Made by a program: the position numbers and the translations under genes | The notes under the pieces: generated by a model | Databases searched by the model: none | The model's input: only the letters and a program-made list of their open reading frames with translations | Told to the model about the DNA's origin: nothing | In this document: one piece after another, positions 36,080-64,000 of the stretch | How positions within the stretch are numbered: position 1 is the first letter of the stretch | Layout of the letters: each line of letters opens with the position of its first letter | Assembly: GCA_963814275.1 (NCBI GenBank) | Contig: CAWFCE010000002.1 | Span: 1,195,263-1,259,262, forward strand | Origin: Candidatus Parcubacteria bacterium | GTDB taxonomy: Bacteria > Patescibacteriota > Patescibacteriia > Patescibacteriales > UBA12075 | Length of the DNA stretch: 64,000 nucleotides | Direction of reading: 5' to 3'

Positions 36080-36107
36080 GAACGCAAAATAATTAAATTT
36101 TTACATC

Positions 36108-37208: not shown

Positions 37209-37227
37209 GTGCCACAACTTAAACATC

Positions 37228-37433
37228 ACATAACACCGCGATAAGCGGCTCCAGAAAATTTTCTTTATTAATATTAAACAGGAATAAAATTTTCTACCGG
37301 CCCAAATTTCATTTCAGTTTTCTGATGAACGTTCAATAAACGTTCATCGCTCCACGATTGTCTGATATTGATAATAATCGATTCTAAAACGGAAAACTGA
37401 AGTGAAACTTCGCTTCATCGGGAAATGTTAAAT
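37228..37433 (+). repeat. attC-like site 17 (206 bp)
   Basis: R'' ACATAAC is the reverse complement of the upstream GTTATGT. Long branched H2. R' is GTTAAAT (37427-33). Duplicated with the NUDIX cassette in array 2. Confidence 0.72.
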
Positions 37434-37497
37434 GAAATATCTAAAACAAATTCCCTATCGGGAATTTTATCTGCAAGTTTATAATTAATTTTCTTAT

Positions 37498-38160
37498 ATG
37501 AAAAACAAATTTTTTTTACTATTAATCTTAGTCATTATCTTAGCTGGGTGCAATAAACAAAACACAAGTATTAATTTAACCCCAGATAATCAAACTAAAA
37601 ATATTTCAAACTCAACAAACGATACTAATACATCAATACAGGAAAACGTAGAAGCAAAAAACAATATTCCCGAAGAAAAACCAACAGAAATTAAGCAAGA
37701 AGACGATATAAAAATACAAAATATTAATAATAAAAAAAGTTATCAAAATTTAACAACTGGGTTTAGCTTAGAATTTCCAGAGGCATTAATATTCAGGAAT
37801 AACGCTTTTTACACCGAGGTAAACTGGGACGGTATTGTAAATAAAAAAACTGACCATATGTACGTTCCTGAATTTACTGTCCGTTTTGCATCTGATGTGT
37901 CATTAGATGAATTTATTTATAATTCGATTAACCCAAATTATAAAAATCATTTTAATTCAAACAAAAACAAAATCAAAGAACAAAAAACAATAGGAAATAA
38001 TAAATTCTTTATGATAAACAGTAAAAATTTTGATAGCAATGGTTGTAGTTACTATATAGAAAATAATAAAAATATAATGAGATTAAGTACCGCATATAAC
38101 TGCGGTGAAAACGAATTAATAGAAAACGTTTTGATATCTATTAAAACAACAGAAAATTAA
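37498..38160 (+). CDS. putative lipoprotein (cassette 18)
   Basis: 220 aa. Signal peptide with lipobox ILAGC; Asn/Lys-rich. Confidence 0.55.
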   Translation: MKNKFFLLLILVIILAGCNKQNTSINLTPDNQTKNISNSTNDTNTSIQENVEAKNNIPEEKPTEIKQEDDIKIQNINNKKSYQNLTTGFSLEFPEALIFRNNAFYTEVNWDGIVNKKTDHMYVPEFTVRFASDVSLDEFIYNSINPNYKNHFNSNKNKIKEQKTIGNNKFFMINSKNFDSNGCSYYIENNKNIMRLSTAYNCGENELIENVLISIKTTEN

Positions 38161-38212
38161 TTATAAACTTGCAGATTATTTTTGCTATCGCAAAAATGGT
38201 TTTAGATACAGC

Positions 38213-38318
38213 ACATAACAGCACGATATCCGGTTCGCGCTTTCCTTCGGAAAATGCTCACGCAAATCCCGACTCCGTTTCACTGCGTCGGGACTTCGGA
38301 TATCGGCATACGTTAGGC
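38213..38318 (+). repeat. attC-like site 18
   Basis: R'' ACATAAC has 2 mismatches to the upstream GTTAAAT. Paralog of site 16 with a compensatory H1 stem TTTCC/GGAAA. R' is GTTAGGC (38312-18). Confidence 0.68.
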
Positions 38319-38347
38319 GAAATTTAAAATTTATCTTTATCTCAATT

Positions 38348-38638
38348 ATGTCATTAAACAAACTAAAACATTTTAAAAAACCTTGGGTAATTGGTCTTAT
38401 TGTTGGTATAATCCTAGCCATCGGAAATATATTACTTGCCGGAATTCCAGGGATTATCTTATTTGAAAACACTTTAGATCCGGTACAATCAATTTCTGGT
38501 TGTGCAGGAGAAGACTGTTGGGGTCCATCTGCACTTTATGGTAGTGTAATTTTCTTAATTGTCGGGTTTTTATTTGGTTACCTTGTTGGAATATTTATAA
38601 ATAGATCCTTGAGCAAAGTAGATAAAGATAAATTTTAA
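38348..38638 (+). CDS. small membrane protein (cassette 19)
   Basis: 96 aa, 3 TM helices. The 3' end (GATAAAGATAAATTTTAA) is part of the cassette inverted repeat. Confidence 0.5.
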   Translation: MSLNKLKHFKKPWVIGLIVGIILAIGNILLAGIPGIILFENTLDPVQSISGCAGEDCWGPSALYGSVIFLIVGFLFGYLVGIFINRSLSKVDKDKF

Positions 38639-38712
38639 ACTCAAGGGGGCGCTGCGCTTTCGTCCCGCCCTTTGAATAATATAATTTAATATTGTAGGCG
38701 TGACGAACCCTC

Positions 38713-38811
38713 GCCTAACACCGAGTATACGGAAAAAGGCTCAACTCGCCTTTTTCCCAAATTCGCCTTCGTTTCACTCCGGCGAACTTCGTATACTCGG
38801 AAACGTTATCG
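38713..38811 (+). repeat. attC-like site 19
   Basis: R'' GCCTAAC is the reverse complement of the upstream GTTAGGC. CCGAGTATACGG / CGTATACTCGG stems; H1 AAAAAGGC...GCCTTTTT; CCCAAATT. R' is GTTATCG (38805-11). Preceded by a hairpin module at 38640-38712. Confidence 0.75.
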
Positions 38812-38845
38812 GAAATTACACTTTTTAAAAAATAATTTTATTATT

Positions 38846-39511
38846 ATGAACCATAAACTAAAACCCTTAATCTATAGTTTGATATTTGCTACACCAATAT
38901 ATTTATATGCCACATACGTGTTTAGCTATATTCCAGATTATGATAGTAGCTTTCCTTTTGACAAAGAAGCGTTTTTCTTTGTCCCAGTCTTAACCTATGG
39001 CATCTCAATATTGCTATTCCACATAATTTATATGAAAGCTACAATAAATATTGTTAAAGGTTTTAACGAATACAAAAGAAACAACAAAAAAAAGTATTTA
39101 TATCAAAATTTATTCACCTTTTTGATAGTTTTATCATTCGCCCACCTGTCTTTGGTGGCGCCAAGATACATGCAATCAATAATATTCGTACTTTATTTAA
39201 TAATTTATATTTTAATTATAAAAATCCCCAATCAATACCTTCGCGCTGAATTCAATAACTATAAAAAATATTTTAGAGATGCTAATATATTCAACTTTGT
39301 ATTATCATTCGTGGTTCTTATAAATACTTTTTTATTTATTAGATTCGCAGGAAATATTACCGGAAACGAGGTAGGTGACTTTTTGGCCCTAGTTTATACG
39401 AGTGGATTTTTGTTGTTTCTTTTGTTTGCTTCATTTGTCGTAAATGTATTTATATTACTAATTCATAAAAATTATTTAACAAAAAAACATAACCAACCAC
39501 AAGGTTCATAA
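38846..39511 (+). CDS. polytopic membrane protein (cassette 20)
   Basis: 221 aa with about 6 TM helices. Confidence 0.5.
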   Translation: MNHKLKPLIYSLIFATPIYLYATYVFSYIPDYDSSFPFDKEAFFFVPVLTYGISILLFHIIYMKATINIVKGFNEYKRNNKKKYLYQNLFTFLIVLSFAHLSLVAPRYMQSIIFVLYLIIYILIIKIPNQYLRAEFNNYKKYFRDANIFNFVLSFVVLINTFLFIRFAGNITGNEVGDFLALVYTSGFLLFLLFASFVVNVFILLIHKNYLTKKHNQPQGS

Positions 39512-39589
39512 TAATAAAATTATTTCTTTATTTGGGCTATTCGCCCAAATGTCCTTCCCTATCGGTCAGGACTAAAAAGTGTAACTGTC

Positions 39590-39726
39590 CGATAACAGCG
39601 TATATCAGGTTCCGACTCCCCTGTCGGTGAGCCTCCACCCAAATTCGGTCTCCATAATTTGCTGGTGCTCCGCACAATTTTAGAAAATTACTACGACTGT
39701 ACTTCTAATATACGCATATGTTAGAT
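39590..39726 (+). repeat. attC-like site 20
   Basis: R'' CGATAAC is the reverse complement of the upstream GTTATCG. GGTTCC; CCACCCAAATT. R' is GTTAGAT (39720-26). Confidence 0.7.
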
Positions 39727-39763
39727 GAAATGACTCCATATTCATTACGTCACATCATCTAAC
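39721..39763 (+). other. minimal ORF-less cassette (43 bp)
   Basis: TTAGAT-GAAATGAC...GTCACATC-ATCTAAC: just a short inverted repeat between an R' and the next R''. Confidence 0.5.
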
Positions 39764-40325
39764 ACTGTGTAACTGGCTCCGCTAAATAAATAATTTCATT
39801 TCAATATTATGGCTTACTATAACAAAATCGGCTTATTGATTTTAAATGAAAATGCTACTAAATTTCTTGTTTGTGAGCCTGGCAACCTGTATAAAAATAA
39901 AAACGTTACTCAGTATTTAATGCCCGGCGGGAAATACGAAGAAGATTCTGTCGAGGATTGTTTAAAATCCGAAACAAAAGAAGAGCTTGGTTGTGAATTG
40001 GACATAAGCAGTGTTAAATATATTAATGAATACCTCGACGTAGCCGCGGCAAGCCCCAATCGCGATGTCTCAATTCGTTTATATGAAGGAAAACTCATTG
40101 GCAAACCCGTTCCCTCAACTGAAATAGGCGCTCTTCATTGGATTGGAAAAAGAGACGTTAATAATGAAAAAGTTTCTGCCATAATAAAAAATAAAATAAT
40201 CCCCGATTTAGTGGAGAAAAAAATATTGAAATAAAATTATTTATTTAGCTCCGCCCAAATTTTTGAAATAATTAATTAACTTGATAAGGAATTTCAAAAA
40301 CTTCAGTTACACATAAACGTTAGAT
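39757..40325 (+). repeat. attC-like site 21, split by a nested cassette (39783-40247)
   Basis: R'' ATCTAAC. L'' TGTGTAACTG (39766-75) pairs with L' CAGTTACACA (40305-14). The direct repeat GCTCCGC occurs at 39776-82 and 40248-54, the latter abutting CCAAATTT. R' is GTTAGAT (40319-25). Confidence 0.72.
39809..40234 (+). CDS. NUDIX-like hydrolase (nested cassette)
   Basis: 141 aa. Nudix-box-like PGGKYEEDSVEDCLKSETKEELG. Flanked by the perfect 15-bp inverted repeat CTAAATAAATAATTT (39782-96 / 40234-48). Confidence 0.6.
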   Translation: MAYYNKIGLLILNENATKFLVCEPGNLYKNKNVTQYLMPGGKYEEDSVEDCLKSETKEELGCELDISSVKYINEYLDVAAASPNRDVSIRLYEGKLIGKPVPSTEIGALHWIGKRDVNNEKVSAIIKNKIIPDLVEKKILK

Positions 40326-40398
40326 GAAATAAATAAATGCTTTTCGGCTAACGCCGAAAAATTATTCGGGCAAATATTTATTATTCAATACTAAAAGA

Positions 40399-40944
40399 AT
40401 GAACAAAAAAATAATATTGACGTTAAGCATTTTAGCCCTTATGGCTATCGGGCTCTATTTCTGGATTGTTAACAAATATCAACCTAAACCTGAAACAAAT
40501 ATCCCACTGGTTAATCAACCGGTTGTGGAAGATGCACAGATGGACGAAACTAAAAAAATTGACAATTGGCAGACTTATACAAACAAAGATTATGGTTTCG
40601 AATTCCAATACCCAAGTGATTTAAAGAAAAAAGATAATCATTATTATTTTTTTGATCTAGTAAATAAGCAAGTTACAATACATATAGATATTCTTGATGA
40701 AAAATTTGATATTAATAATGTAAAAAGCCCTATTGGATACGTCCCAAAAGACACAATCAGTGAAACCACAATTAATGGAATTAAAGCCTACTTCTTTAGT
40801 GATGGTGACATGGGTGCAGGGGGAAATAGCTATAGAATGCCAATCGACGAAAATCATACTTTACTTATTTGGTTTGTTACAGAAGGCGGCCCATACCAGA
40901 ACGAAAATAAAATTCTTTCAAGTATAAAAATATTGAATAAATAA
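40399..40944 (+). CDS. TM-anchored extracytoplasmic protein (cassette 23)
   Basis: 181 aa with an N-terminal TM helix. Confidence 0.5.
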   Translation: MNKKIILTLSILALMAIGLYFWIVNKYQPKPETNIPLVNQPVVEDAQMDETKKIDNWQTYTNKDYGFEFQYPSDLKKKDNHYYFFDLVNKQVTIHIDILDEKFDINNVKSPIGYVPKDTISETTINGIKAYFFSDGDMGAGGNSYRMPIDENHTLLIWFVTEGGPYQNENKILSSIKILNK

Positions 40945-40991
40945 AATTTGCCCAAATAATACTCGCTATCGCTCGCGAATTTATTTACATC

Positions 40992-41095
40992 AGCTAACAG
41001 CACGATATCCGGTTTGCGCTTACCTCCGGCAAACGCTCACCCAAATCCCGATATCGCTTCGCTCATCGGGACTTCGGATATCGGCAATGTTATCG
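40992..41095 (+). repeat. attC-like site 23
   Basis: R'' AGCTAAC has 1 mismatch to the upstream GTTAGAT. Family of sites 16, 18 and 24. R' is GTTATCG (41089-95). Confidence 0.7.
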
Positions 41096-41149
41096 GAAAT
41101 AGGAAAAAAAATATTTTCTTCCAGAAAATACAAATTATTTTTGAAAATT

Positions 41150-41187
41150 AAAAAGCCTCGTGGTTACTTAAGTATTATCCACGAGGC
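41150..41187 (-). terminator. rho-independent terminator of the reverse-oriented cassette gene
   Basis: GCCTCGTGG...CCACGAGGC hairpin followed by a T-run on the minus strand. Confidence 0.55.
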
Positions 41188-41205
41188 CAATTAAACGGTT
41201 TTATT

Positions 41206-41460
41206 TTATCTATCTGTAAAATATGGGCATCTACCACAATAAGTAGATACTTCCTCCTTAGATCTTGGAGGTCCTGGATTACAGTACGACAAGTAACACG
41301 AACCTTCTTTGCCCAATTGCCAGTGTTTGCACAACACTTTTGTGCGACCGTCAAGGTAAACATTAACAATTGCTTGACAGGGCTTGTCAAAGACATTCTT
41401 TCTTGACCTGTCTGCCCCCATACAAGGAACTATATGTGATTGTAATAAAACACTTTCCAT
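41206..41460 (-). CDS. small Cys-rich protein (reverse-oriented cassette 24)
   Basis: 84 aa. Strong SD (AAGGAGGAATC-ATG on the minus strand); 8 Cys including CGRC. Confidence 0.55.
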   Translation of the reverse strand: MESVLLQSHIVPCMGADRSRKNVFDKPCQAIVNVYLDGRTKVLCKHWQLGKEGSCYLSYCNPGPPRSKEEVSTYCGRCPYFTDR

Positions 41461-41609
41461 GATTCCTCCTTGTTCAGTTATAATATTTCCAAAAATAATT
41501 TAAAAATAGTGCGGGATTTTATAGCGTTTAAAACTAACATCACAGATATTATATTTTACACTTTTTAGGAAGAAAGTCAAGACACTATTTCCTGTTTTTT
41601 ACTACTATC

Positions 41610-41697
41610 CGATAACAGCCGATATCCGGTTTGCGCTTACCTCTGGCAAATGCTTACCCTTCGCTACTCGGGACTTCGGTTATCACAAACGTTAGGC
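41610..41697 (+). repeat. attC-like site 24 (CCCAAAT core partly deleted)
   Basis: R'' CGATAAC is the reverse complement of the upstream GTTATCG. Aligns with site 23 but lacks about 6 nt of the central motif. R' is GTTAGGC (41691-97). Confidence 0.65.
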
Positions 41698-41786
41698 GAC
41701 ATTTGCGAGCGTGTTAATTTGTCTACAGGATCCTAACAAAAAATAATTATAAATAAAGATTATTTTTAAACAAAATTTGTATAAAT

Positions 41787-41921
41787 ATGAAAAAAAACAT
41801 AAAACAGGCAATTAAAATTCACCAACAAGGTTTTCTTCCGATAGTAGAAAAATATATTAGGAATAAAAATCTTTTAGATGTTGGCTGCGGGAATGGATTA
41901 AATTCATTTTTCTTAATATAA
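41787..41921 (+). pseudogene. truncated SAM-methyltransferase fragment (cassette 25)
   Basis: A 44-codon ORF ending just after motif I (LLDVGCGNG). It runs directly into a 5'-truncated attC-like site lacking R''. Confidence 0.5.
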
Positions 41922-41924
41922 AAC

Positions 41925-42047
41925 TTTCTCTTACGCATTCGCTTCAGAGAAATTATAATATTGAAATTCTTTCACCCAAATTTTGCAGATGAATATAAAT
42001 ATTAATAAGGTATCTGCAAAACTTCGCAACATGCGGATATGTTCAGC
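41925..42047 (+). repeat. attC-like site 25, 5'-truncated
   Basis: TTCACCCAAATT, H2 TTGCAGATG...TCTGCAA and ACTTCG are present, and R' is GTTCAGC (42041-47). No recognisable R''. Confidence 0.5.
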
Positions 42048-42094
42048 AAAATCGTGCGCCTTCGCTAACGCTCGGCGCTTCGATCTTGCTGAAC
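42042..42094 (+). other. minimal ORF-less cassette (53 bp)
   Basis: TTCAGCAAAATCG...CGATCTT-GCTGAAC. R'' GCTGAAC (42088-94) is the reverse complement of the upstream GTTCAGC. Confidence 0.5.
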
Positions 42095-42165
42095 GGTCGC
42101 GGTGCCCGAATCAGTTAAATAAAATAGCCTCGGCCATTATTCTTGTATCAAAGTATTGACAACGT

Positions 42166-42196
42166 AAAAAAGCCGCTACTTAATTTCACGGCTTTT
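42166..42196 (-). terminator. possible bidirectional terminator downstream of the reverse gene
   Basis: AAAAGCCG...CGGCTTTT hairpin with an A-run and a T-run on either side. Confidence 0.45.
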
Positions 42197-42271
42197 GAAT
42201 GGACTATCTCACTTTACACGGAACATCTGGTCCGTAAAAAGGAATTTAATAAATTGAACCCTTTTTACAGT

Positions 42272-42754
42272 TTACCTGGCTATGCGTTTGTAAATGAAAA
42301 AAGGCATTAACATGATGATTAGCTCCCTGCTCCACCATTCCCATTTTGTACGAGTGCGTTTTTGCCCTGATTCGACGCAAAACCACTCATTAGAATATAG
42401 TCTCACTTCTTCACATGCGTTAACCTTAATTTGTGCGCCAGCTTCTCGGACAGCATAAGTCAGATCCCTAACACAGCGCCACATGTGAGGTTTTGCGGCT
42501 ACAATCAAAAGATTTGTAATTCCTCTACGCATTGCCCACTGAACAGCCCCCCTTGCTATTCGCAAAGTAGGCGGCGGATAACCTGGTTGTTCTTTCGTAA
42601 ATTCAACTTCAATTTTCGGCTCAACCATAACGTCAACCTGAGTATATACTGGTGCGCATAATTCCCTGGCTTTCCGCGAAGCGATTTCAGAAATTAACCT
42701 ATTTGAGAGTAAAGAACTTGGTACCCCAAATGCTTGTGCCACTATTCCTTCCAT
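42272..42754 (-). CDS. hypothetical 160-aa protein (reverse-oriented, last unit of array 1)
   Basis: SD AAAGGAGGTTCAAT-ATG on the minus strand. GC content is higher than in neighbouring cassettes. Confidence 0.55.
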   Translation of the reverse strand: MEGIVAQAFGVPSSLLSNRLISEIASRKARELCAPVYTQVDVMVEPKIEVEFTKEQPGYPPPTLRIARGAVQWAMRRGITNLLIVAAKPHMWRCVRDLTYAVREAGAQIKVNACEEVRLYSNEWFCVESGQKRTRTKWEWWSRELIIMLMPFFIYKRIAR

Positions 42755-43251
42755 ATTGAACCTCCTTTGTTTGTATAGCCAGATTTTACTTTATAACATA
42801 TTTTATAATATTTGTCTATAGTAAAAACAAAAAAATATTAAAAGGGCTCTAAAATAAGGTATGTTATTTGTTAAATTTCTTTTCACTACACCCAAATTTC
42901 ATTTATCCTTTTATCAATAATTATAATAAGCTATAATAAATAAAACTTCCGATACTCCGATATGTTCAGAGAAATAATAAAAAATCTTTTTTGTCGTATG
43001 CATGTTTAAAAAAATTAAAAGGAAGTGATTTTATTTAAATATCCTTGGAAAGAACAAAGGGATGAACCCAAAAGAATTTATGCGGTATCTGGATGGAATG
43101 AAGCCTAAAATTATTATAACGAGCAGTTTCAACTTTATTCACCTCATTCCGCTCCCTGCTGCGCATGGCCTGCGGGCCACGGTTCACCACGCAACAAACG
43201 GCTTACCAAATTCTTTATCTTTATTCTTAACCATATATAGTAAAATATAAT

Positions 43252-45575: not shown

Positions 45576-46097
45576 ATGTATTCACCGTCATTGGCAGAAA
45601 TCGATCGCATTCGCAAGAACGGCTACCGGCCGCAGGTGGTCGGCTGTTTTATGAATAGCCAAAGGATCCTTTTTCTCTATGATAAGAAATACGGGCTCTG
45701 GCAACTGCCCCAAGGCGGCATCGATAACAAAGAAACAGTCGAACAGGCGGTATTGCGTGAAATGTCCGAGGAACTGGGAGAAGAATTTACCGCGCCCGCG
45801 GAAATCAAGGCGCTTCTCGGTGAAGATCAGCTGGAATTTCCCGACCGCTTCAAGAATTCCCGTGAGATGAGAACGGATGATGGCGAAGAGATGAATATGC
45901 GCGGAAAAAAATATTTTTTTGTCGCGATCGATACGGATTTATCCAATCTGGATATCGATAAAACCGAATTCGATGATTATAAATGGCTGGACTACGAAGG
46001 CGCACTCCGACTGACTGCCGCAATCCACCAAAAGGGCAAAAGAATAATCACGGAATCCGCCCTGGCCAAACTGCGCGAATCAGGCCTGCTCTCATAG
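45576..46097 (+). CDS. NUDIX hydrolase (core)
   Basis: 173 aa. Nudix box GGIDNKETVEQAVLREMSEELGEE. Confidence 0.8.
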   Translation: MYSPSLAEIDRIRKNGYRPQVVGCFMNSQRILFLYDKKYGLWQLPQGGIDNKETVEQAVLREMSEELGEEFTAPAEIKALLGEDQLEFPDRFKNSREMRTDDGEEMNMRGKKYFFVAIDTDLSNLDIDKTEFDDYKWLDYEGALRLTAAIHQKGKRIITESALAKLRESGLLS

Positions 46098-53683: not shown

Positions 53684-54085
53684 TTAACCGTCTAATCGTT
53701 CACGCAGGCGGCGGGCAATGCCCTCCAGTTCCTCCGTAGATAATTTCTTCACGTTCTTCAAATCAAGGGAATCGCCGTGGCCGTCGTTCGGGAAACGGGG
53801 TATCAGCCAGACGTGGGCGTGTGGCACTTCCTCGCCGAAAACGGCGGAAACCACCCATTCCGTATTGAACTCCCGACGCAGCGCATTGGCGATCCTTCCT
53901 ACCACGCCGTAATATGCGCCGATATCAGGCACGTCCCAGACCCAGCGGTAATGCTTCTTGGGTATGACAAGCGTATGGCCGGGATTGCGCGGCGTGATAT
54001 CGAGGAATGCCAAAAAATCGTTATCCTCGTAAATTTTATAGCTGGGGATGTCCCCGGTTATGATTTTACAGAAAATGCACTCCAT
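53684..54085 (-). CDS. HIT family protein
   Basis: 133 aa. CIFCKI and histidine triad HAHVWLIP. Confidence 0.85.
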   Translation of the reverse strand: MECIFCKIITGDIPSYKIYEDNDFLAFLDITPRNPGHTLVIPKKHYRWVWDVPDIGAYYGVVGRIANALRREFNTEWVVSAVFGEEVPHAHVWLIPRFPNDGHGDSLDLKNVKKLSTEELEGIARRLRERLDG

Positions 54086-54218: not shown

Positions 54219-54626
54219 TTATTTTATGTTTTCCGTCACTTGTTTGAGGCAATGCTCCGCTTCGCCTTCGGAGTAGCCGCTTTGCGGCCAGCGTTCCAGT
54301 CCGTCGCCTTCGGCGCGGGGTACGACGTGGAAATGGGCGTGCGGTACGTGCTGGTTGGCCGCGCTTTTATTGTCCAGGAATACGCTATAGCCTTTTACGC
54401 CCAGCCCGGCCATTACGGCCTGGCCGATCTTCTTGACCGCGACCGCCATGGCGGAAATTTCCTCATCGCTCAGGCTCTCGACGTCCCCTTCGTGCTTCTT
54501 GGGTACGACGATCGTATGGCCCGGGCTGATCGGCAGGATATCGAAAAAGGCCATTACCTTGTCGTCTTCATAGACTTTGTAGCTGGGGATGTCCCCGGCA
54601 ATGATTTTGCAGAAAATGCAATCCAT
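54219..54626 (-). CDS. HIT family protein
   Basis: 135 aa. CIFCKI and histidine triad HAHFHVVP. Confidence 0.88.
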   Translation of the reverse strand: MDCIFCKIIAGDIPSYKVYEDDKVMAFFDILPISPGHTIVVPKKHEGDVESLSDEEISAMAVAVKKIGQAVMAGLGVKGYSVFLDNKSAANQHVPHAHFHVVPRAEGDGLERWPQSGYSEGEAEHCLKQVTENIK

Positions 54627-56539: not shown

Positions 56540-57970
56540 TCATAAGATTTCTTTTATTTTTTCAAAAAGTGATTTGCCTTCCAAGTCAGCTTTAATTGAT
56601 TTAATTTCAACAAAATCATCAATCTCATCATCGGCGCGGAGGCCGGGTATGGAGATAATGAAAGAATACGCGCCGTTTTCGCGGTAGGCGGAGGATAGAT
56701 CGATGTCAGCGGCAGCGGTCTGCCAGCCATCTGCTGACGCGGGCGGATAGTAGCCGGCTATTACATAATCTATCCCCTCTTTATCCGGATCGAACGTGGC
56801 GTCGACTTTCCTGATGGCGGGGTTAAGCAATTCTTCCGGGCGCAAGGTGAAGACGCCGTCGCCGGTCAGGGTAATCCCGTCTTTTTCCAGCTCGATCGGG
56901 GCAGGTTGGCCGGGTTTAGCGTCTGTTTGGGCGGTGTACTGGCGGTAGGTTTCGGCCATATCGATGGTAGAAGAACCGACCCTGAGCGTTTGCAGGCTCT
57001 CCGGTCGGGATGTTACCGCCTGAATTTGCCGGCTGTCGGTATAGAAAACAAAATTCTCCTCTCCGGAAGCATACAAGGGCACTTTGCCGATTAACGACAG
57101 CTTGCTTTGCGCTGTGTCTATCCGGTCGGTGACGATGTCACTGCCGGCGCGCACCGCGATCTTATAGACACCCTCAGGCAGTCCGGGCAGGTCAAAAGAC
57201 GCTTTTTCGTTCCCGCCGGACTGGCCGTTTTCCGGGGCGCCCGCGTCTTCGACCTTTCGGGAATCGATCGGTTCGCCGTTATAATAAAGGATGATCTCGA
57301 CCGGGTCCGGATCCCGGTTAAGGTTCAGGTCATGAAAGGTGAAATCGAAGCGGAGCGGCTCATCCTTGACATAGGTATAGAACTGGTAATCACCCCGGAG
57401 GGCAATGCCGATATCGCGCATGGCGCTCGAACTGGCATAACCGGATAAAAGATAGGGCAAGCGCAAATCATAATTATATACGGCAATACGCCCGCGCCCG
57501 GGCGGATTGGCCAGGAAATCGCCGATCGAATCGTAATCAGGCTGGCGCTGCAGCAGCAGCGTCTCCCCTTCCCTGACCGCGTTCCAGTCTCCGGCCAATC
57601 GGTCGAGCAAACTGTTATCCAAAGGCTTAAGCGAGTAGCGCCACACGGTCTTATCGACCAAGGCTCCGGTTTCGATGATGGGCTTAGTAGAATCGTTCTT
57701 ATATTCGATCGTTAATTTGGCTTTATCGAAGCGGCGCGGGGTGTACAAAGCAAAATAGACCGGATCGCCGGTCAGTTTGACAGTGTGGCTGTCGGTTCTT
57801 TCCACTCTGTCGTCCGGAGTGAGCGCCCGGATAAAATAGCTGCTCGCGGTAAAATCCTGCTTATAGGTAATTTTCCCGCCGGGAACGACTGTCATATAGA
57901 CAAGCCAAACAAGCAACAGCCCCAAGGCCGTCCACAATATGATCCTGATTTTAATCTTTATATCCGGCAT
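56540..57970 (-). CDS. hypothetical TM-anchored extracytoplasmic protein
   Basis: 476 aa with an N-terminal TM helix. Its start codon overlaps the recombinase stop (TAATG). Confidence 0.5.
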   Translation of the reverse strand: MPDIKIKIRIILWTALGLLLVWLVYMTVVPGGKITYKQDFTASSYFIRALTPDDRVERTDSHTVKLTGDPVYFALYTPRRFDKAKLTIEYKNDSTKPIIETGALVDKTVWRYSLKPLDNSLLDRLAGDWNAVREGETLLLQRQPDYDSIGDFLANPPGRGRIAVYNYDLRLPYLLSGYASSSAMRDIGIALRGDYQFYTYVKDEPLRFDFTFHDLNLNRDPDPVEIILYYNGEPIDSRKVEDAGAPENGQSGGNEKASFDLPGLPEGVYKIAVRAGSDIVTDRIDTAQSKLSLIGKVPLYASGEENFVFYTDSRQIQAVTSRPESLQTLRVGSSTIDMAETYRQYTAQTDAKPGQPAPIELEKDGITLTGDGVFTLRPEELLNPAIRKVDATFDPDKEGIDYVIAGYYPPASADGWQTAAADIDLSSAYRENGAYSFIISIPGLRADDEIDDFVEIKSIKADLEGKSLFEKIKEIL

Positions 57971-58782
57971 TAATATGGGCTTTTTATTTTTTTAATCCCC
58001 GGATTGGTTACCTGGGTGTAGTGCTGGGTGGTACGGATATTGGCGTGCCCGAGCAGGGCCTGCACATAGCGTACATCCGTTCCCTGTTCCAGCAAATGAG
58101 TGGCAAAGCTATGCCGCAGAGAATGGAAGGTCGCGTCTTTTTTTATTTCCGTGTCTTTAAGCGCGCGTTCAAATATGGCTTGCACGGCGCGCGAGGAATA
58201 TTTCCCGCCTCGGTTGCTCATGAATACCGGATCACCGGCTTGCCGCTCGCAGATGAATTCCCTTAAATCATGCCTGAGCAGTTCGGATATAATCGTTATT
58301 CTATCCTTTTTGCCCTTAGCGCCTTTGATGTGGATTATCAATTCTTCCAAATCAAAATCTCTGACGCGCAGGCCTGTTACTTCGCTGATCCGCAGTCCGG
58401 CCGCATATGACAATTCGATCATCAGGCGGTGCTGACGGTTTTTTATTTTGCTCATCAGCAATTTAATTTCCCGCGAACTCATTACTACCGGCAGTTTACT
58501 CTCTCTTTTTGCGAATTTAACGTCGATTTTATCAGATATATTTAGAATATCCCGGTATAGGAATTTTACCGCATTCAAGGCCAGATTAATAGTCTGCGCG
58601 GCCAGATCTCGTTTTCTCATTTCCAGCAAGAAATCTTTAACCGCTTCTTCTTTGCTTTCTTTTTTGTTAATAGTCACGTATTTTAAATATTCCCTGATAT
58701 ATCTCAGGTAGCTGGTTATGGTTTTTCCACTATAGATCATCATCACTAATTCTCTTTCTGTTTTAGCTAAAATAGATTGCAT
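57970..58782 (-). CDS. tyrosine recombinase, integron-integrase-like N-terminus but Xer-sized (array 2 recombinase)
   Basis: 270 aa. SGKTITSYLRYIREYLKY core-binding domain; catalytic set AGLRISE, GKKDR, HSLRHSFATH, LLGH, QHYTQV. Divergent from the cassette array that starts at 58897. Confidence 0.85.
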   Translation of the reverse strand: MQSILAKTERELVMMIYSGKTITSYLRYIREYLKYVTINKKESKEEAVKDFLLEMRKRDLAAQTINLALNAVKFLYRDILNISDKIDVKFAKRESKLPVVMSSREIKLLMSKIKNRQHRLMIELSYAAGLRISEVTGLRVRDFDLEELIIHIKGAKGKKDRITIISELLRHDLREFICERQAGDPVFMSNRGGKYSSRAVQAIFERALKDTEIKKDATFHSLRHSFATHLLEQGTDVRYVQALLGHANIRTTQHYTQVTNPGIKKIKSPY

Positions 58783-58889
58783 TTTATTAAATATTTGCTA
58801 AAATATAATAAGAAACGTGTTGACAATATTATACCAAATATTTCACATAATATACAAAAAAACACCATTATTTTACATATTTTCGCATA

Positions 58890-58903
58890 ATAACCAGTTG
58901 TAC
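58890..58903 (+). other. attI-like site of array 2 (ATAACCAGTTGTAC)
   Basis: First GTTRRRY box (GTTGTAC, 58897-903). Exactly complementary to the R'' GTACAAC of the first cassette. Shares ATAACCAGTT with array 1. Confidence 0.5.
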
Positions 58904-58930
58904 GAAATTTGAGAACTTATTATTCAAAAT

Positions 58931-59260
58931 ATGTGGAAACAACTAAACAAAAAAACGAAAAATCTAGGATACATTACTCTCACTATTACAGTAATTATTC
59001 TTTTTCAAGTGGCAAATTTTAGAAATATATATCCAGGGTATTGTGATTTAGTACCCGATAAAAAATGTTTTGGTTTTCTCTCTGTTGGTGTCCAAATTAT
59101 TATATTGATATTTTTCATAATTGCTTTTGGAATTGCGTTATCAAAAAACATTCAAGCGATAAAAGGCAAAGAGCCAGCAGACATTGACATGGTTAGAATT
59201 ATTGCGTGGGCGGTACTAATCACATTTTTTATCGGAGTAATATTTGAATTCTTTTTTTGA
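58931..59260 (+). CDS. small membrane protein (array 2 cassette 1)
   Basis: 109 aa, 3 TM helices. Flanked by the inverted repeat GAAATTTGAGAACTTATTATTC / GAATAATAAGTTCTCAAACTCC. Confidence 0.5.
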   Translation: MWKQLNKKTKNLGYITLTITVIILFQVANFRNIYPGYCDLVPDKKCFGFLSVGVQIIILIFFIIAFGIALSKNIQAIKGKEPADIDMVRIIAWAVLITFFIGVIFEFFF

Positions 59261-59347
59261 ATAATAAGTTCTCAAACTCCTTCGGCCCCGCTGCGCTCTC
59301 GGCCTGCCTCTTTTTATTAATTTAATAATGAGGGCAGACCTCGGGTC

Positions 59348-59446
59348 GTACAACACGCTGTATCTGGTTCGGGGCTCAGCCCGCCCCTCTCCCAAATTCG
59401 CTTCCGCTTCGCTCCAGCGAACTTCAGATACAGCGATATGTTAAAT
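59348..59446 (+). repeat. attC-like site, array 2 no. 1
   Basis: R'' GTACAAC is the reverse complement of the attI-like GTTGTAC. CGCTGTATCTGG / CAGATACAGCG stems; GGTTCG; H1 GGGCTCAGCCC; CTCTCCCAAATT. R' is GTTAAAT (59440-46). Preceded by a hairpin module at 59271-59347. Confidence 0.75.
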
Positions 59447-59542
59447 GAAATTGGCTTCACGATTAGCACATTCCATAGAATGTGCTATAGAATACTCTAT
59501 AGGTGGTTAATCCAAATTAATCGCAAGCCAACTTCACTTAAC
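59441..59542 (+). other. conserved ORF-less cassette, copy 2 of 3
   Basis: GAAATTGGCT...TTAATCGCAAGCCAACTTC-ACTTAAC with internal hairpin GCACATTC-CATA-GAATGTGC. Confidence 0.6.
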
Positions 59543-60215
59543 AGGTGATATGCGACTGCGAAAAGTAATTTTTATTTTTTAATTTTTATGTGGCGAACAA
59601 TTTCATCTAAAGAGATATTCAATCATCCACGCATTGTATTAGTCGAGGATGAGGTTGAATTACCGAATGGCAAAGTAACCAAATACCTTAGATACAAGGA
59701 CAGTGGTGCTGGCGTCGTTACCATAGTCTGCAGGCGTGATGACGGCAAGATATTATTACAGAAAGAATATTCCTACCCGATCAACCAAAAACTTTTCCAA
59801 TTTCCTGGCGGCGGAACACATCCGGGTGAAAAACTGGAAGACGGAGCTAACCGCGAACTAATGGAAGAAGCGAACTTAAGAGCTAACAAACTTGAGTTAA
59901 TTGGAAAATATCTGAAAAATAATCGTCGTTCCAAGGTAATGTTTCATGTTTACCTTGCTACAGATTTAGTAAGTGACTCGTTGCCCAGCGACGAAACCGA
60001 AGAAATCGAAAGTTTTTGGTTTAGTGAAGACGAAATTGACGACATGATAAGAAATGGGGACATTATAAATAACCACGCCTTGTCTGCCTGGATACTTTAT
60101 AAGATAAAAATTAAAAAATAAAAATCACTTTTCTCCGTCCAAATTCCTGTCCCTCTTTTTAGATAATTTTAATAATGAGTCGGGGCAGGAACTTCGCATA
60201 TCACAGATGTTATGT
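59536..60215 (+). repeat. attC-like site, array 2 no. 2, split by a nested cassette (59560-60133)
   Basis: R'' ACTTAAC. L'' GGTGATATGCG pairs with L' CGCATATCAC. TCCAAATT and the H2 stem CCTGTCCC...GGGGCAGG follow. R' is GTTATGT (60209-15). Paralog of the array 1 site at 32010-32534. Confidence 0.7.
59588..60121 (+). CDS. NUDIX hydrolase, ADP-ribose pyrophosphatase-like (nested cassette)
   Basis: 177 aa. Nudix box GGGTHPGEKLEDGANRELMEEANL. Flanked by a 28-bp inverted repeat (59560-87 / 60106-33). Confidence 0.8.
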   Translation: MWRTISSKEIFNHPRIVLVEDEVELPNGKVTKYLRYKDSGAGVVTIVCRRDDGKILLQKEYSYPINQKLFQFPGGGTHPGEKLEDGANRELMEEANLRANKLELIGKYLKNNRRSKVMFHVYLATDLVSDSLPSDETEEIESFWFSEDEIDDMIRNGDIINNHALSAWILYKIKIKK

Positions 60216-60270
60216 GAAATTTAAGTTGTGGCCTTAATTTAATTTAATATATTCAATAACTTCTTTCTTA

Positions 60271-60663
60271 ATGATAAAACAAGTTTCATTGTTAATATTA
60301 TTTGATAAAGATAAGCGCATTTTATTACAACATCGTTCCGAAGATCAAGAAGGATTACCTGGTTATTGGGCTTTTTTTGGTGGTCATATTGAAAACGGCG
60401 AAACACCAGAGCAGGCATTACTGAGAGAGTCTGAGGAGGAATTAGAGTATATGCCGGAAAACCCTCGCCTAGTTATGACTCAGGATTTTATGCACGACAA
60501 TATACGACATAGAAAATACGTTTATTTAGAGGAATATAATAACAGCAAACTTGTTCAACACGAGGGTCAAGCTATGGGATGGTACCATTTAGGCGAAATA
60601 CAAAAATTAAAAATGGTAGACCACGACCGAGAAGTTATTGATTATATTAAAAACAAATATTGA
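60271..60663 (+). CDS. NUDIX hydrolase (second copy of the cassette at 36816-37208)
   Basis: Protein identical to the array 1 copy. Only synonymous nucleotide differences were seen by eye (TTG/TTA, GGC/GGT, CCC/CCT). Confidence 0.85.
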
Positions 60664-60682
60664 GTGCCACAACTTAAACATC

Positions 60683-60888
60683 ATATAACACCACGATAAG
60701 CGGCTCCAGAAAATTTTCTTTATTAATATTAAACAGGAATAAAATTTTCTACCGGCCCAAATTTCATTTCAGTTTTCTGATGAACGTTCAATAAACGTTC
60801 ATCGCTCCACGATTATCTGATATTGATAATAATCGATTCTAAAACGGAAAACTGAAGTGAAACTTAGCTTCATCGGTGAACGTTAGGC
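60683..60888 (+). repeat. attC-like site, array 2 no. 4 (copy of site 17)
   Basis: R'' ATATAAC (one substitution relative to copy 1). Same 206-bp body. R' is GTTAGGC (60882-88), which differs from copy 1 (GTTAAAT). Confidence 0.72.
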
Positions 60889-60914
60889 GAAATATTTTTA
60901 AAGCAACAAATCTT

Positions 60915-61124
60915 ATGAACAAAAAAATAATAACAATTTTGATAATATCCATTGTGGCATTATCAATCATCTCAGCTCTGTCAATCAATCATTGTCGAAA
61001 AACATGCAACTGTCCGATTGAATCAATGTGCTCAAAAATATGCGATTCGGCTTTACAATTTTTTGACATAGACAGTTGTCCATATATAACAAATTTTCCT
61101 GAAATTCAACCAACAAATAATTAA
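60915..61124 (+). CDS. small TM-anchored Cys-rich protein
   Basis: ATG at 60915 (MNKKIITILIISIVALS). The track start at 60876 reads through the attC-like site. Confidence 0.5.
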   Translation: MNKKIITILIISIVALSIISALSINHCRKTCNCPIESMCSKICDSALQFFDIDSCPYITNFPEIQPTNN

Positions 61125-61145
61125 CTGTTGCTTTAAAAATACATC

Positions 61146-61302
61146 GCCTAACACCGCGATAAGCGGCTCCATCTCGCTTATTATTAATAAATGATAATAT
61201 TAAATGGCGGGATTCCGACCCAAATTTCAATCCTTTCTTTTAAGTATTAATTTTAATAATGTAGAAAGAATTGAAACATCGCTTCATCGGGAAACGTTAT
61301 AT
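61146..61302 (+). repeat. attC-like site, array 2 no. 5
   Basis: R'' GCCTAAC is the reverse complement of the upstream GTTAGGC. Family of sites 3, 11, 13 and 17. R' is GTTATAT (61296-302). Confidence 0.75.
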
Positions 61303-61396
61303 AAAATTGGCTTCACATATAGTGTACACCATAGCGCCATCTATAGAGTACACTAACGTAATAAATAAAATTAATCGCGAGCCAACTTCACTTAAC
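61297..61396 (+). other. conserved ORF-less cassette, copy 3 of 3
   Basis: AAAATTGGCT...TTAATCGCGAGCCAACTTC-ACTTAAC with internal TAGTGTACACC...GAGTACACTA. Confidence 0.6.
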
Positions 61397-61775
61397 AATG
61401 TATATACGGCTCCGCCGGACGTGAAATAAATATTTTTAGAAAGCTAACTAAAAGGAGGTGCACATGGATGAAATAAAAAAAGATGTTGGCAAAGACGATC
61501 CTTACAGAAACCTCAAAGAATGGGGTGAACGAGCGCGCAAAAAAATGAAGCCCGAAGACTGGGAAAATGCTTTAAACGCAGCCGAAAGCATTATCGAGAA
61601 TATTGCGCGCATCTGTTCTTAGTAACAATTAACATTCCATTCTGGGGGAAATTCGCTTTCCCCCGCTTTCTAAAAATATTTATTTCACTGGCTCTGCCCA
61701 AATTTTTATTTTTCTTTTCTCTATAATGATAATAATGAAGAAAAATAAAAACTTCGTGTATACAAAATGTTAATC
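61390..61775 (+). repeat. attC-like site, array 2 no. 6, split by a nested cassette (61421-61688)
   Basis: R'' ACTTAAC. L'' TGTATATACGG pairs with L' CGTGTATACA. GCTCCGC (61409-15) and GCTCTGC (61691-97) flank the insert, the latter abutting CCAAATTT. R' is GTTAATC (61769-75). Confidence 0.68.
61464..61622 (+). CDS. 52-aa hypothetical protein (nested cassette; absent from the ORF track because it is under 60 aa)
   Basis: Strong SD AAAGGAGGTG 5 nt upstream of the ATG. Translation MDEIKKDVGKDDPYRNLKEWGERARKKMKPEDWENALNAAESIIENIARICS. Followed by hairpin GGGGGAAA-TTCG-CTTTCCCCC. The cassette is bounded by a perfect 24-bp inverted repeat (61421-44 / 61665-88). Confidence 0.55.
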   Translation: MDEIKKDVGKDDPYRNLKEWGERARKKMKPEDWENALNAAESIIENIARICS

Positions 61776-61805
61776 GTAATTTAATATTTATTTTTTATTA
61801 CTTTT

Positions 61806-62078
61806 ATGGCAGAAGATAAATTTAGTTACAAAGAAACATTCAAAAGAGTATCGGCAATAATATCCATGTTTTTACTGATTATTTACATTTGGGCTGTATT
61901 CAATTTTGGTGGTCTTGGCGGAAGTTCTCCTAATCCTTCTTTTGGTGCTTTTACTAATCCAGTTATCTATATAATAATTATTGCAATTACTCTCATTAGT
62001 TCTGTGATTTTAACCATATTTATTAAGTGGGGAAAAGAAATCGTTAATAAAGTAAAAAGTAATAAAAATAAATTTTAA
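61806..62078 (+). CDS. small membrane protein
   Basis: 90 aa, 2 TM helices. Confidence 0.5.
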   Translation: MAEDKFSYKETFKRVSAIISMFLLIIYIWAVFNFGGLGGSSPNPSFGAFTNPVIYIIIIAITLISSVILTIFIKWGKEIVNKVKSNKNKF

Positions 62079-62243
62079 ACTCTGCGGATTTACTTTTCCA
62101 AATTCGAGTGACTAACACAATTAGCACAACTCCATAACAGCACAACATTAAGTGTACATCTAAAGTAAATCCTTGCCCCGTTGCACTCTCACTTTCAAAT
62201 TATAAATTTCTATTATAATAAAAATAATTTGAGTCTTCGAGAC

Positions 62244-62355
62244 GCCTAACAGCACGATACACGGTTCGCTCGCGCACTTGCTCTCCCAAATTTTTAAAAT
62301 GAATATTAACTTTAATAATGTATTTCAAAAACTTCGTATATCGGCAACGTTGTAC
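62244..62355 (+). repeat. attC-like site, array 2 no. 8
   Basis: R'' GCCTAAC does not match the upstream GTTAATC. GCACGATACACGG / CGTATATCGGC stems; GGTTCG; CTCTCCCAAATT; H2 with a TTAACTTTAATAAT loop. R' is GTTGTAC (62349-55). Confidence 0.65.
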
Positions 62356-62500
62356 GAAATAAATTTTTTATCTGTAGAGGTTTTAATGGTTAGTGTTTTG
62401 AACACGACGAAAATTTGATTTTTTATTTATTTAATGAGGGGAAATAAGGCGGGTTTTCTTCGCTCCGCTGCGAAAACGATTTATTAACATATCTAAAAAT

Positions 62501-64000
62501 ATGACAAAAAAACTACTTTTATCAACAGTGACTTCTATTGTATTATTTGGATTAATTGGCATTACAAATGCGCAAAGTGAAAAACTCCATATCTCAGAAG
62601 ATAATGTAGTCTATGACTGCCCTGATGGCCAAGTAACCGCGCCTGAAAATCTAAATATCGATATGGAAAGTACGTCTATAATTGACGATAGATTTTTTAA
62701 AGACAAAAACAAAGTTTATACGGTCTCCGAAAATTGGAAGGCCAGAATCTGTACATTCTATATACTTGATAATATTGACCCAGAATCATTCGTGATATTT
62801 AATGACTATTACCAAAAAGATAATAACAATATATATTATAGCGATAACTACTGGGGATTCGGCACACCGCAAATAATTGAAGGCGCGGATATAAATACTT
62901 TTACCGTTCTTAATGACTGGTACGCCAAAGATAAGAACTATGCTTATTATACACGCCTTACTGACCATGAAAAAATCACTATGGCTGATGTTGGAACCTT
63001 CGAAGTTTTGAGTGAAGATGGCAGTTACGCCATGGATAAAAACAATATGTACTTGTACGGCAAAGTTCTAAACGAAGCAGCTGACAAAATCACCGACAAA
63101 TCACTTTACCAAAATCTTAAAGGGAAAGTTTTACTCAAAGTAGAAGCTAATGGCGAAGCTTACTATGTACATCCGACTAAACAGGAAATGCACTATCTGT
63201 CCCGTCCGTTGGTAGCTTTCTATGTTATGCGGGAACAAGGAATAGGCATTACCGACGGTGATTTAGAAAAAATAGAAATTGCCATAGACAATATATCGGG
63301 AACTGATTCTGATGGAGACAAACTTTCGGATATGCTTGAAGATTCGTTGGGTACGAATAAATACAAAATGGACAGCGATGGAGATGGTTTTAACGACAAA
63401 GAAGAGGTTGTGAACGGATATAATCCGGCAAACAGCAAAAAATTGAATCTTGATAGCGGTTTTGCACGAGCTCAGGCAGGTAAAATTTTCTTGCAGGTCG
63501 AAAAAAATGGCGAAGCCTGGTATGTAAATCCCATAAATTATAAAAGATATTTTTTGGGAAGGCCGATTGACGCATTTAACCTAATGAGGGACTTGGGACT
63601 TGGCATAAGTGATGCAAATTTTGAGAAAATGATTAATAATGATACAAATTGGAAAATTTTTAAATCTACTGAAAAACAGATATATTATGAAACAGATGAC
63701 TGGTCATCATACAGCCCTCAAGATAGCGCCAATAAAGTTCAAATTGCTTTTGAGTACCCTGGAAGTTGGAGTTTTACTGGTACCAGTGTATTTGATGATG
63801 AGACAGGAAGTAAAATAGCCGAATTATTGCCTGGCGCAATATTATTAAGCAATAATCAAAACTGTTTCGATTCTCCGCATGATGACAACTTTGGAATGAG
63901 CAAACTGATCTCAAAAGAAAATTTTACTATCGAGAACAATAGTGGCGTAAAAAAAATCACTAAAACTAATACTAATAACGGAACTTGGTATCCAAATTTA
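62501..64000 (+). CDS. secreted multi-repeat protein, partial (open to the window end)
   Basis: Absent from the ORF track because no stop falls inside the window. The ATG at 62501 opens 500 codons without a stop. Signal peptide MTKKLLLSTVTSIVLFGLIGITNA; DKNxxY repeats (DKNKVY, DKNYAYY, DKNNMYLY); Asp-rich DSDGD repeats; two copies of GK(V/I)(L/F)LxVExNGEAxYVxP. Confidence 0.65.
   Translation, partial: MTKKLLLSTVTSIVLFGLIGITNAQSEKLHISEDNVVYDCPDGQVTAPENLNIDMESTSIIDDRFFKDKNKVYTVSENWKARICTFYILDNIDPESFVIFNDYYQKDNNNIYYSDNYWGFGTPQIIEGADINTFTVLNDWYAKDKNYAYYTRLTDHEKITMADVGTFEVLSEDGSYAMDKNNMYLYGKVLNEAADKITDKSLYQNLKGKVLLKVEANGEAYYVHPTKQEMHYLSRPLVAFYVMREQGIGITDGDLEKIEIAIDNISGTDSDGDKLSDMLEDSLGTNKYKMDSDGDGFNDKEEVVNGYNPANSKKLNLDSGFARAQAGKIFLQVEKNGEAWYVNPINYKRYFLGRPIDAFNLMRDLGLGISDANFEKMINNDTNWKIFKSTEKQIYYETDDWSSYSPQDSANKVQIAFEYPGSWSFTGTSVFDDETGSKIAELLPGAILLSNNQNCFDSPHDDNFGMSKLISKENFTIENNSGVKKITKTNTNNGTWYPNL

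Follow-up and report, generated by a model that had tools for sequence, protein, structure and literature searches.

The stretch analysed here, called the window, comprises 64,000 nucleotides (nt) of a contig from a Candidatus Parcubacteria bacterium. At its end, at 57970-64000, we found what we propose to be a functional integron-type platform for cassette capture. The platform would work with a short non-canonical recombinase, it would be one of two platforms in the window that exchange cassettes, and it would belong to a system conserved in the Candidate Phyla Radiation (CPR). We put the probability of this reading, which was built from sequence comparison, at roughly 0.8. An earlier note on the same DNA had described this platform as integron-like, as the second in the window and independent of the first, and as equipped with a recombinase, an attI-like box and an attC-like array of its own. 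This description was correct on every point that could be tested. The note did not remark on the missing IntI-specific domain or on the conservation of the system in many CPR genomes.

In the proposed mechanism a conserved duplex insertion site (attI-like, ..TTCGCATAATAACCAG/TT.., where the slash here and below marks the crossover) would have a divergently transcribed tyrosine recombinase gene on one side, and mobile cassettes would be stacked head to tail behind it on the other. Each cassette would start with TTRRRY-GAAAT and end in a palindrome composed of R'' (RYYYAAC), L'', variable hairpins, CCCAAATT, AACTTC, L', 3-4 nt and G. Cassettes would be excised as circles and re-inserted at attI, with the crossover between the G and the TT of R', a position that the junctions described below show directly. 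The palindrome would most likely act as a folded hairpin, as in integrons, which is suggested by covariation. The enzyme would be a short recombinase of XerA/IntI-like type that has no IntI-specific I2 domain, and the hairpin would carry its unpaired bases on the crossover arm. Platforms of different sub-lineages, as the two in the window, would exchange cassettes, and related versions would exist in some Bacillota and Spirochaetota.

The strongest evidence for this mechanism came from three contigs, representing strains of a related species (L082, L083 and L084, from three Joint Genome Institute (JGI) samples) that encode P0003, a recombinase 65% identical to the recombinase of 57970-64000 (recombinase B). 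The recombinase genes and core flanks of the three contigs were 99.95% identical, and the order of their cassettes differed. A deaminase cassette, which was the third one in L082, was located directly at attI in L084, while the attI cassette of L082 was internal in L084. The corresponding junctions, ..AAAAACCAG/TTATATGAAAT.. and ..GCGGAAACG/TTATATGAAAT.. (at length ..CATAAAAACCAG/TTATATGAAATTGAATT.. and ..CATGCGGAAACG/TTATATGAAATTGAATT..), were swapped exactly at G/TT. Judging from these junctions we concluded that the difference is a natural excision followed by re-insertion at attI. The earlier note had suggested looking for cassette traffic between the arrays across strains; here a change of cassette position was seen between strains of a related species. 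Movement of cassettes as discrete units with a G/TT crossover is one of the traits by which integrons are recognised. A crossover in R'' (AA/C, + strand) was considered and ruled out, as the identity of the shared cassette of the window (see below) starts at R', not at R'', and the attI junctions lie at G/TT. Separately, a gene for an IS110-family transposase was present inside the cassette array of L082 (4107-5078) and L083 (3169-4140).

Exchange of a cassette was also apparent within the window. The first platform, platform A, consists of recombinase A (24920-25780, minus strand, 286 amino acids (aa), same superfamily as B), an attI-like site and array A (25859-42970, + strand), which holds about 22 cassettes with 22 R' sites from 27248 to 42964. 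It was confirmed that the two platforms are about 15 kb apart and that ordinary genes, encoding histidine kinases, a GT2 glycosyltransferase and a NUDIX protein, are located between them. As had been suggested, the arrays share site families and cassettes: their attC-like sites are of the same family, and one whole NUDIX cassette is present in both (36755-37427 in array A and 60210-60882 in array B) with ~98% identity and identical encoded proteins. The matching region begins at GTTATGT and ends at the following GTT, so that both of its boundaries are at G/TT. Both arrays contain co-oriented accessory-type genes of low guanine and cytosine (GC) content, ~33% in both (0.30-0.38 in array A) and 45-53% in the flanks and core. 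The products of array A include NUDIX, SAM-methyltransferase, SET-domain and Amidase_2 proteins, and are mostly proteins of unknown function.

If cassettes insert via a G/TT crossover, R'' must complement the first bases of its own cassette and not the adjacent R'. R'' was the exact reverse complement of the R' at its own start in 15 of 25 cassettes and of the adjacent R' in one of 25 (permutation p<1e-5). When attI A was placed at 25858 the own-start matches rose to 16 of 25, and the site at 28621 added two more exact ones. The first cassettes of both arrays complement the attI-side box. For array A, R'' (ATCTAAC) is the reverse complement of the attI A box; for array B, R'' (GTACAAC, 59348-59354) is the exact complement of GTTGTAC at 58897-58903, located 115 nt upstream of the start codon of recombinase B. 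Both array-B boxes were read directly in the sequence where they had been reported. The same was true of GTTAGGC at 60882 and its reverse complement GCCTAAC at 61146, the latter being R'' of the fourth cassette.

The L arms vary, with 21 distinct left arms among 25, and they do so in pairs. Cognate L''/L' duplexes had a mean energy of -11.4 kcal/mol, compared to -5.6 kcal/mol for non-cognate ones, and the cognate arm was the best of 25 in 17 of the 25 sites (p<5e-5), including split sites with arms 400-700 nt apart. Covariation was scored by these duplex energies; a MAFFT alignment of mini-sites had put the stems of two sub-families in inconsistent register. This covariation indicates selection for structure.

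To locate the insertion sites we used an attI weight matrix trained on the attI-like sites of other genomes only, and never on the window. Its best match in the whole 64 kb on either strand was at 58897 (31.5 bits), and 25858 ranked third. These positions correspond to attI-like site B (..TTTTCGCATAATAACCAG/TTGTACGAAAT, 58875-58908, + strand), with the crossover between 58897 and 58898, and to attI-like site A (..AAGTTCAGATATAACCAG/TTAGATGAAAT, 25836-25869, + strand), with the crossover between 25858 and 25859. The two sites are 33 kb apart. Thus each array was found to adjoin a recombinase gene with an attI-like site beside the gene, as is typical of integrons. The second-best match (19 bits) was at 58478 on the minus strand, inside the coding sequence of recombinase B and on the gene's own strand, and is probably due to chance. 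Between the start of recombinase B and attI B there is an imperfect palindromic box, TTTCACATAATATACAAA (58841-58858, no strand assigned). Many CPR loci, among them the upstream regions of L003, L005, L007, L008, L010, L013, L019, L071 and others, have boxes resembling TTCGTATAATATACGAA at a distance of 35-45 nt upstream of the attI-like site, with half-sites similar to the TTCG.ATA arm that is found in attI and in the right arms of attC. The box at 58841-58858 may be an accessory binding site of the recombinase or an operator.

Homologues of the recombinase were numerous, with more than 7,600 matches at E<1e-20; the best matches were nearly all 266-301 aa long, and every named one belonged to Patescibacteria. 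For comparison 80 loci were taken from species-representative genomes. In ~32 CPR loci an attI-like site with the consensus aAaAnAnTTCGgATAaaAAcgAG/TTaTgcGAAAT was found 76-162 nt upstream of the recombinase start codon, and with a leave-one-out matrix the top match of the whole locus was located 76-162 nt upstream of that codon in 30 of 32 loci. Three contigs (L002, L017 and L030) end exactly at ..AGTTA(T), and ~25 end at most 600 bp upstream of the gene, which is consistent with a variable or repeated array disrupting short-read assembly. When the right-arm matrix of the window was applied to the relatives, 85 matches were obtained upstream on the array strand and three upstream on the other strand. 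Downstream, three matches were on the array strand and 23 on the recombinase strand, the latter in non-CPR loci. At least one attC-like site was present in 21 of the 25 CPR-type loci having at least 1.5 kb of upstream sequence, and the complete Wolfebacteria genome CP011209 (L015) carries a small array of the same architecture. We concluded that the predicted system is conserved in many CPR genomes.

Outside CPR, in Desulfitobacterium sp. Sab5 (L048), a member of the Bacillota (L045) and one of the Spirochaetota (L046), sites of the same type were located downstream of a 270-aa recombinase and co-directional with it, so that here, too, the array has the recombinase at its 5' end. Co-directional arrays of RYYYAAC...GTTRRRY-GAAA hairpins of ~78-165 nt were observed in L048 (NZ_CP172056, 11700-20700), L045, L046, L076 and L066, downstream of recombinases of ~270 aa that belong to the same family and have no IntI domain. 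Platforms of this kind may also exist in Bacillota, Spirochaetota and Bacteroidota.

The attC-like sites of the window have a common order on the + strand. The 5' part reads CATC, R'' (RYYYAAC), A, L'' (~12 nt, ..TATA..CGG), TTC, a first hairpin and C.CCCAAATT; the 3' part consists of a second hairpin, AACTTC, L', 3-4 nt, R' (GTTRRRY) and GAAAT. In the predicted fold the R stem is followed by an asymmetric internal loop (1 nt left, 3-4 nt right). Further inward the L stem measures 10-12 bp, the right arm has a conserved TT bulge, and then come a GGTT/AAC helix and a three-way junction. The spacer between R'' and L'' is thus 1 nt, and the TT bulge and the 3-4-nt spacer are both on the L'-R' arm. 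The fold of the bottom strand is slightly more stable, and the mirrored geometry persists when the other strand is read. About one third of the sites, those with R' at 29651, 31022, 32528, 40319, 60209 and 61769, have arms split by 400-700 nt and a whole open reading frame (ORF) in the loop. As in integrons, imperfect palindromes with RYYYAAC...GTTRRRY boxes were found whose structure is conserved over a varying sequence. Within the 64-kb window the right-arm matrix scored above 12 bits on the + strand of the two arrays and nowhere else. An ungapped hairpin scanner, which misses bulged sites, served as a specificity check only.

Array B contains six complete cassettes and the start of a seventh. 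The six attC-like sites that had been reported for it were located, with R' (position of the G of GTT) at 59440, 60209, 60882, 61296, 61769 and 62349, all on the + strand. The claim of at least nine cassettes did not hold, as only six complete cassettes and one incomplete cassette could be delimited and the right-arm weight matrix gave no further attC-like site in 62349-64000. All cassettes are on the + strand. Cassette 1 (58898-59440) encodes a predicted membrane protein of 109 aa (58931-59260) and ends in a compact attC-like site (59348-59446); a private 19-nt inverted repeat (58910-58928 and 59262-59280) flanks its ORF. Cassette 2 (59441-60209) begins with a non-coding module, D13 (59441-59542; see below), and carries a NUDIX ORF (59588-60121) in the loop of a split attC-like site (left arm 59536-59560, right arm ~60140-60215). 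The cognate arm pairing of this site ranked first among 25 right arms. Cassette 3 (60210-60882), the copy of 36755-37427, contains a NUDIX ORF of 130 aa (60271-60663) and an attC-like site at 60683-60888, and cassette 4 (60883-61296) contains a small ORF (~60916-61124) and an attC-like site at 61146-61302. Cassette 5 (61297-61769) again combines a D13 module (61297-61396), an ORF of 54 aa (61458-61622) and a split attC-like site (left arm 61390-61415, right arm ~61697-61775). Cassette 6 (61770-62349) has an ORF of 90 aa (61806-62078) and a compact attC-like site (62244-62355). The seventh cassette, starting at 62350, is cut by the window end at 64000; after a conserved leader (62350-62500) its ORF with DKNYY/TSP3 repeats starts at 62501 and runs off the window (Pfam DKNYY 1.5e-16; GC 0.37 vs 0.45-0.53 in the core).

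A 3.6-kb short-read contig from ENA (L001) was 100% identical to 58902-62494. It starts 4 nt past the attI B crossover and ends ~145 nt past the last attC-like site, which agrees with repeats or population variation starting at the crossover. L001 was also the one match to the cassette proteins in exact-protein look-ups; those for the recombinase, the SPFH protein and the 476-aa neighbour gave no match. Exact-pattern scans of metagenome contigs for attI B and for the window end gave no match.

Three further sequence features recurred in the cassettes. D13 is a non-coding module of ~100 nt that directly follows the R' box and has an R''-like ACTTAAC as its end; within it lies the palindrome TAGTGTACAC..GTGTACACTA. 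Copies were found in the window at 31916-32016, 59441-59542 and 61297-61396, in L082 at ~3506-3630 and in L084 at ~4860-5071, with 85-87% conservation between species; a split site with an ORF in the loop follows all three copies of the window. D13 may be a promoter or operator at the cassette head. Secondly, in unrelated cassettes of different genomes R' is followed by a conserved leader of ~95 nt (AAATAAATTTTTTATCTYGGTG...GAAAATTTGATTTTTTATT...GAGGGG ahead of the start codon; 31022-31120, 62349-62500 and, on the minus strand, from 31741 in the window; L015 ~9720-9565 and L006 ~9880, both minus strand). By its sequence the leader looks like a cassette-borne promoter with a ribosome-binding site. 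It had no match in Rfam, and Rfam and tRNA scans of the window were negative. Thirdly, private inverted repeats of 14-19 nt flank many cassette ORFs, with one copy immediately ahead of the start codon and the other immediately behind the stop codon (58910-58928/59262-59280, 28711/28912, 33591/33903 and 37506/37739). In single-stranded DNA or mRNA a stem-loop would thus enclose the coding region.

Recombinase B (57970-58782, minus strand) is a tyrosine recombinase of 270 aa from the XerA/IntI-like family that lacks the IntI-specific insertion. The assignment given in the earlier note was supported by Pfam, which identified Phage_integrase (PF00589, 4.6e-40) and the SAM-like N-terminal domain Phage_int_SAM_4 (PF13495). 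The catalytic residues R131, H220, R223, H246 and Y255 were invariant in an alignment of 27 family members. The best family model of both recombinases was the XerA-type NF040815 (NCBIfam), with A at 249 bits exceeding the cutoff of 220 and B at 203 bits below it. The integron integrase model TIGR02249 matched both recombinases in two stretches, the first at model positions 2-180, with 197 and 209 bits, below the cutoff of 265. Eight relatives scored 212-249 bits on NF040815 and behaved like A and B on TIGR02249. The closest solved relative of B, by sequence as well as by fold, is the integron integrase VchIntIA (PDB 2a3v), and the catalytic residues are intact. The sequence alignment of B with VchIntIA, its best PDB match, skips IntI4 residues ~210-243. 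The AlphaFold (AF2) model of B (predicted local distance difference test (pLDDT) score 87) had 2a3v as best fold match (E 1e-16, 30% identity), with 317 alignment columns for 270 residues, i.e. ~47 gap columns, and XerA as the next fold match. By definition an integron integrase has an extra domain around patch III (PMC9668308). Since this domain is missing in A and B, we concluded that the two are not integron integrases in the defined sense.

When the two recombinases and attI regions were aligned, as had been proposed, A and B turned out to be 40% identical and to have different attI variants. B belongs to the main CPR clade, and A is nearer to a second group (L039, L040, L043 and L067), whose attI variant, TTCGTATATAAC..GTT, resembles the attI of A. 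The term recombinase paralog, used in the earlier note, was right in that array B has its own recombinase, but it overstates the relatedness of the two. Because of the 40% identity, the different sub-lineages and attI variants and the differing arrays, A and B represent two platform lineages and not a recent duplication or an assembly artefact. Two platform lineages appear to coexist in a single genome and to share a cassette pool.

Several observations concern single loci of the window. The R' of the array-A site at 28621 is mutated (ATTATGT for GTTATGT), and the site may be a fixed junction that is no longer excisable. Five NUDIX genes are present in the 64 kb (36816-37208, 39809-40234, 59588-60121, 60271-60663 and 45576-46097), four of them in cassettes, two with identical proteins, and one in the core between the arrays. 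A direct repeat of 134 nt with 78% identity (53952-54085 vs 54493-54626) extends over two neighbouring small ORFs of the minus strand (53684-54085 and 54219-54626) and looks like a tandem gene duplication of the core.

Four points weigh against a functional integron-type platform. According to Messier and Roy 2001, as cited in PMC9668308, the additional domain around patch III is described as necessary for integron recombination, and A and B are without it. Nine of the 25 R''/R' comparisons were imperfect. No Pc-like promoter stood out, the consensus scan for promoters and terminators being no better than on shuffled sequence. Finally, the recombinase family is very large (>7,600 matches), which leaves room for an additional housekeeping role.

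The first of these points also fits an alternative that we consider unlikely. Here recombination would take place between duplex sites, in a Xer-like manner as at dif/pdif: the right half of each site (AACTTCG.ATAT - 6-8 bp - GTTRRRYGAAAT) would be a two-arm core site of the classical kind, equivalent to attI, and the palindromic partner arm would have a different role, for example in transcription termination or mRNA stability. In agreement with this, attI and every attC right half have the same layout and motif (TTCG.ATA .. G/TT....GAAAT), and the enzyme is without the I2 helix that IntI uses to hold extrahelical bases. Neither duplex recombination nor termination, however, needs L'' and L' to covary site by site, even over 400-700 nt, or R'' to complement the cassette's own 5' end, a pairing that is present only in the excised circle. 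The conserved TT bulge and the asymmetric internal loop are moreover typical of a recognised folded substrate.

Less probable still, and in our view hardly to be expected, is that A and B are chromosome-dimer resolvases of the single Xer type (XerA, XerS, XerH), with the attI-like box as dif and the cassettes as Xer exploiters similar to integrative mobile elements exploiting Xer (IMEX). The window recombinases do resemble the single-recombinase Xer systems (archaeal XerA, XerS/difSL and XerH/difH) in size and fold, and XerA is their best NCBIfam model (A with 249 bits above 220). The family is near-ubiquitous in CPR. The site is beside the recombinase gene, as difSL adjoins xerS, and a Xer enzyme without the I2 domain can recombine a folded single strand with a duplex site, as in the integration of the CTX phage. 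A dif site is, however, expected once per replicon, at the terminus. Two platforms with two different recombinases and two sites were found within 33 kb of one chromosome. Across the 64-kb window the cumulative GC skew falls or is flat, without a reversal at either site, and the flanking genes are on the same strand, so that neither a skew nor a strand-bias switch marks a terminus. Unlike Xer-exploiting elements such as the CTX phage, the cassettes carry no phage or plasmid functions and are single-gene units with a common palindrome family. Co-oriented, promoter-proximal ORF cassettes in arrays of 6 to >22 are typical of integrons.

That the sites are inert palindromes, similar to repetitive extragenic palindromes (REP) or miniature inverted-repeat transposable elements (MITE), or terminators beside an unrelated recombinase, or that array B is an assembly duplication of A, is scarcely credible: the sites are indeed dispersed intergenic palindromes, and L001 covers only 58902-62494 without a bridge to the recombinase, but the exact G/TT junction swaps between strains, the cassette-level identity boundaries, the agreement of R'' with its own cassette start and the strict polarity with an adjacent recombinase in dozens of genomes speak against inert repeats, and a duplicate of array A, which the earlier note had named as a possible refutation, is contradicted by recombinases of 40% identity and by arrays that share one cassette and differ otherwise.

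We therefore return to the integron-type platform and to its place among known systems. With sedentary chromosomal integrons, such as the superintegron of Vibrio cholerae (VchIntIA/VCR), it shares the divergent tyrosine recombinase, the attI beside the gene and the G/TTRRRY crossover. It also shares the long co-oriented arrays of mostly small genes of unknown function, the low-GC accessory content, and homogeneous imperfect palindromes with RYYYAAC/GTTRRRY boxes in which R'' is complementary to the cassette's own start. Unlike in chromosomal integrons, the recombinases are without the IntI-specific domain and of ~270 instead of ~320 aa; the L'-R' arm, on which the crossover takes place, carries the TT bulge and the longer spacer, whereas canonical attC sites have their extrahelical bases near L'', opposite to the arm with the crossover in R' (PMC5027507). 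Further differences are the conserved internal CCCAAATT motif with the three-way junction, the ORF in the hairpin loop of about one third of the sites, and the leader- or promoter-like module of many cassettes.

IntegronFinder recognises an integrase by PF00589 together with an IntI-specific profile (PMC9668308, PMC9024848). Because that profile cannot match A and B, the window arrays would probably be labelled as CALIN, the category for groups of at least two attC sites that come without an integron integrase. They differ from CALINs in not being orphaned, as in dozens of genomes the 5' end of the array is occupied by a conserved recombinase and an attI, and the cassettes move. The pdif modules of Acinetobacter (PMC7399989) are likewise small gene modules with Xer-type boundaries and no dedicated transposase. 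They use inverted duplex sites on plasmids and the host XerC/D, however, and the window has direct, hairpin-forming sites behind a dedicated recombinase and an attI. In the searchable literature, which leaves out most subscription journals, no description was found of integrons or attC-type arrays in Patescibacteria, or of such arrays tied to Xer-type recombinases, and CPR is not mentioned in the IntegronFinder 2 survey.

It is an even call whether the window represents a large unrecognised class of integron-type capture systems across CPR, with relatives in Bacillota and Spirochaetota, that uses short IntI/XerA-like recombinases without I2 and mirrored hairpins. This class could be ancestral, intermediate between Xer and IntI. 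Many of the orphan attC clusters (CALINs) could be explained by it as well, including those in Archaea, where 75 genomes have attC sites and only six have IntI (PMC9668308). Integrons are defined and searched for by the IntI-specific domain, which is held to permit the use of folded single-stranded attC sites, and here we describe a complete and apparently active cassette platform with a mirrored hairpin geometry that is without this domain. If the platform works as proposed, the definition of integrons and the rules for their detection miss a whole branch, and CPR, which comprise a large share of bacterial diversity with tiny genomes, would have their own dedicated system for shuffling accessory genes. 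The evolutionary step from Xer to IntI would become testable with natural intermediates, and two divergent integrases acting on one cassette pool would constitute a built-in experiment on site specificity in a single genome.

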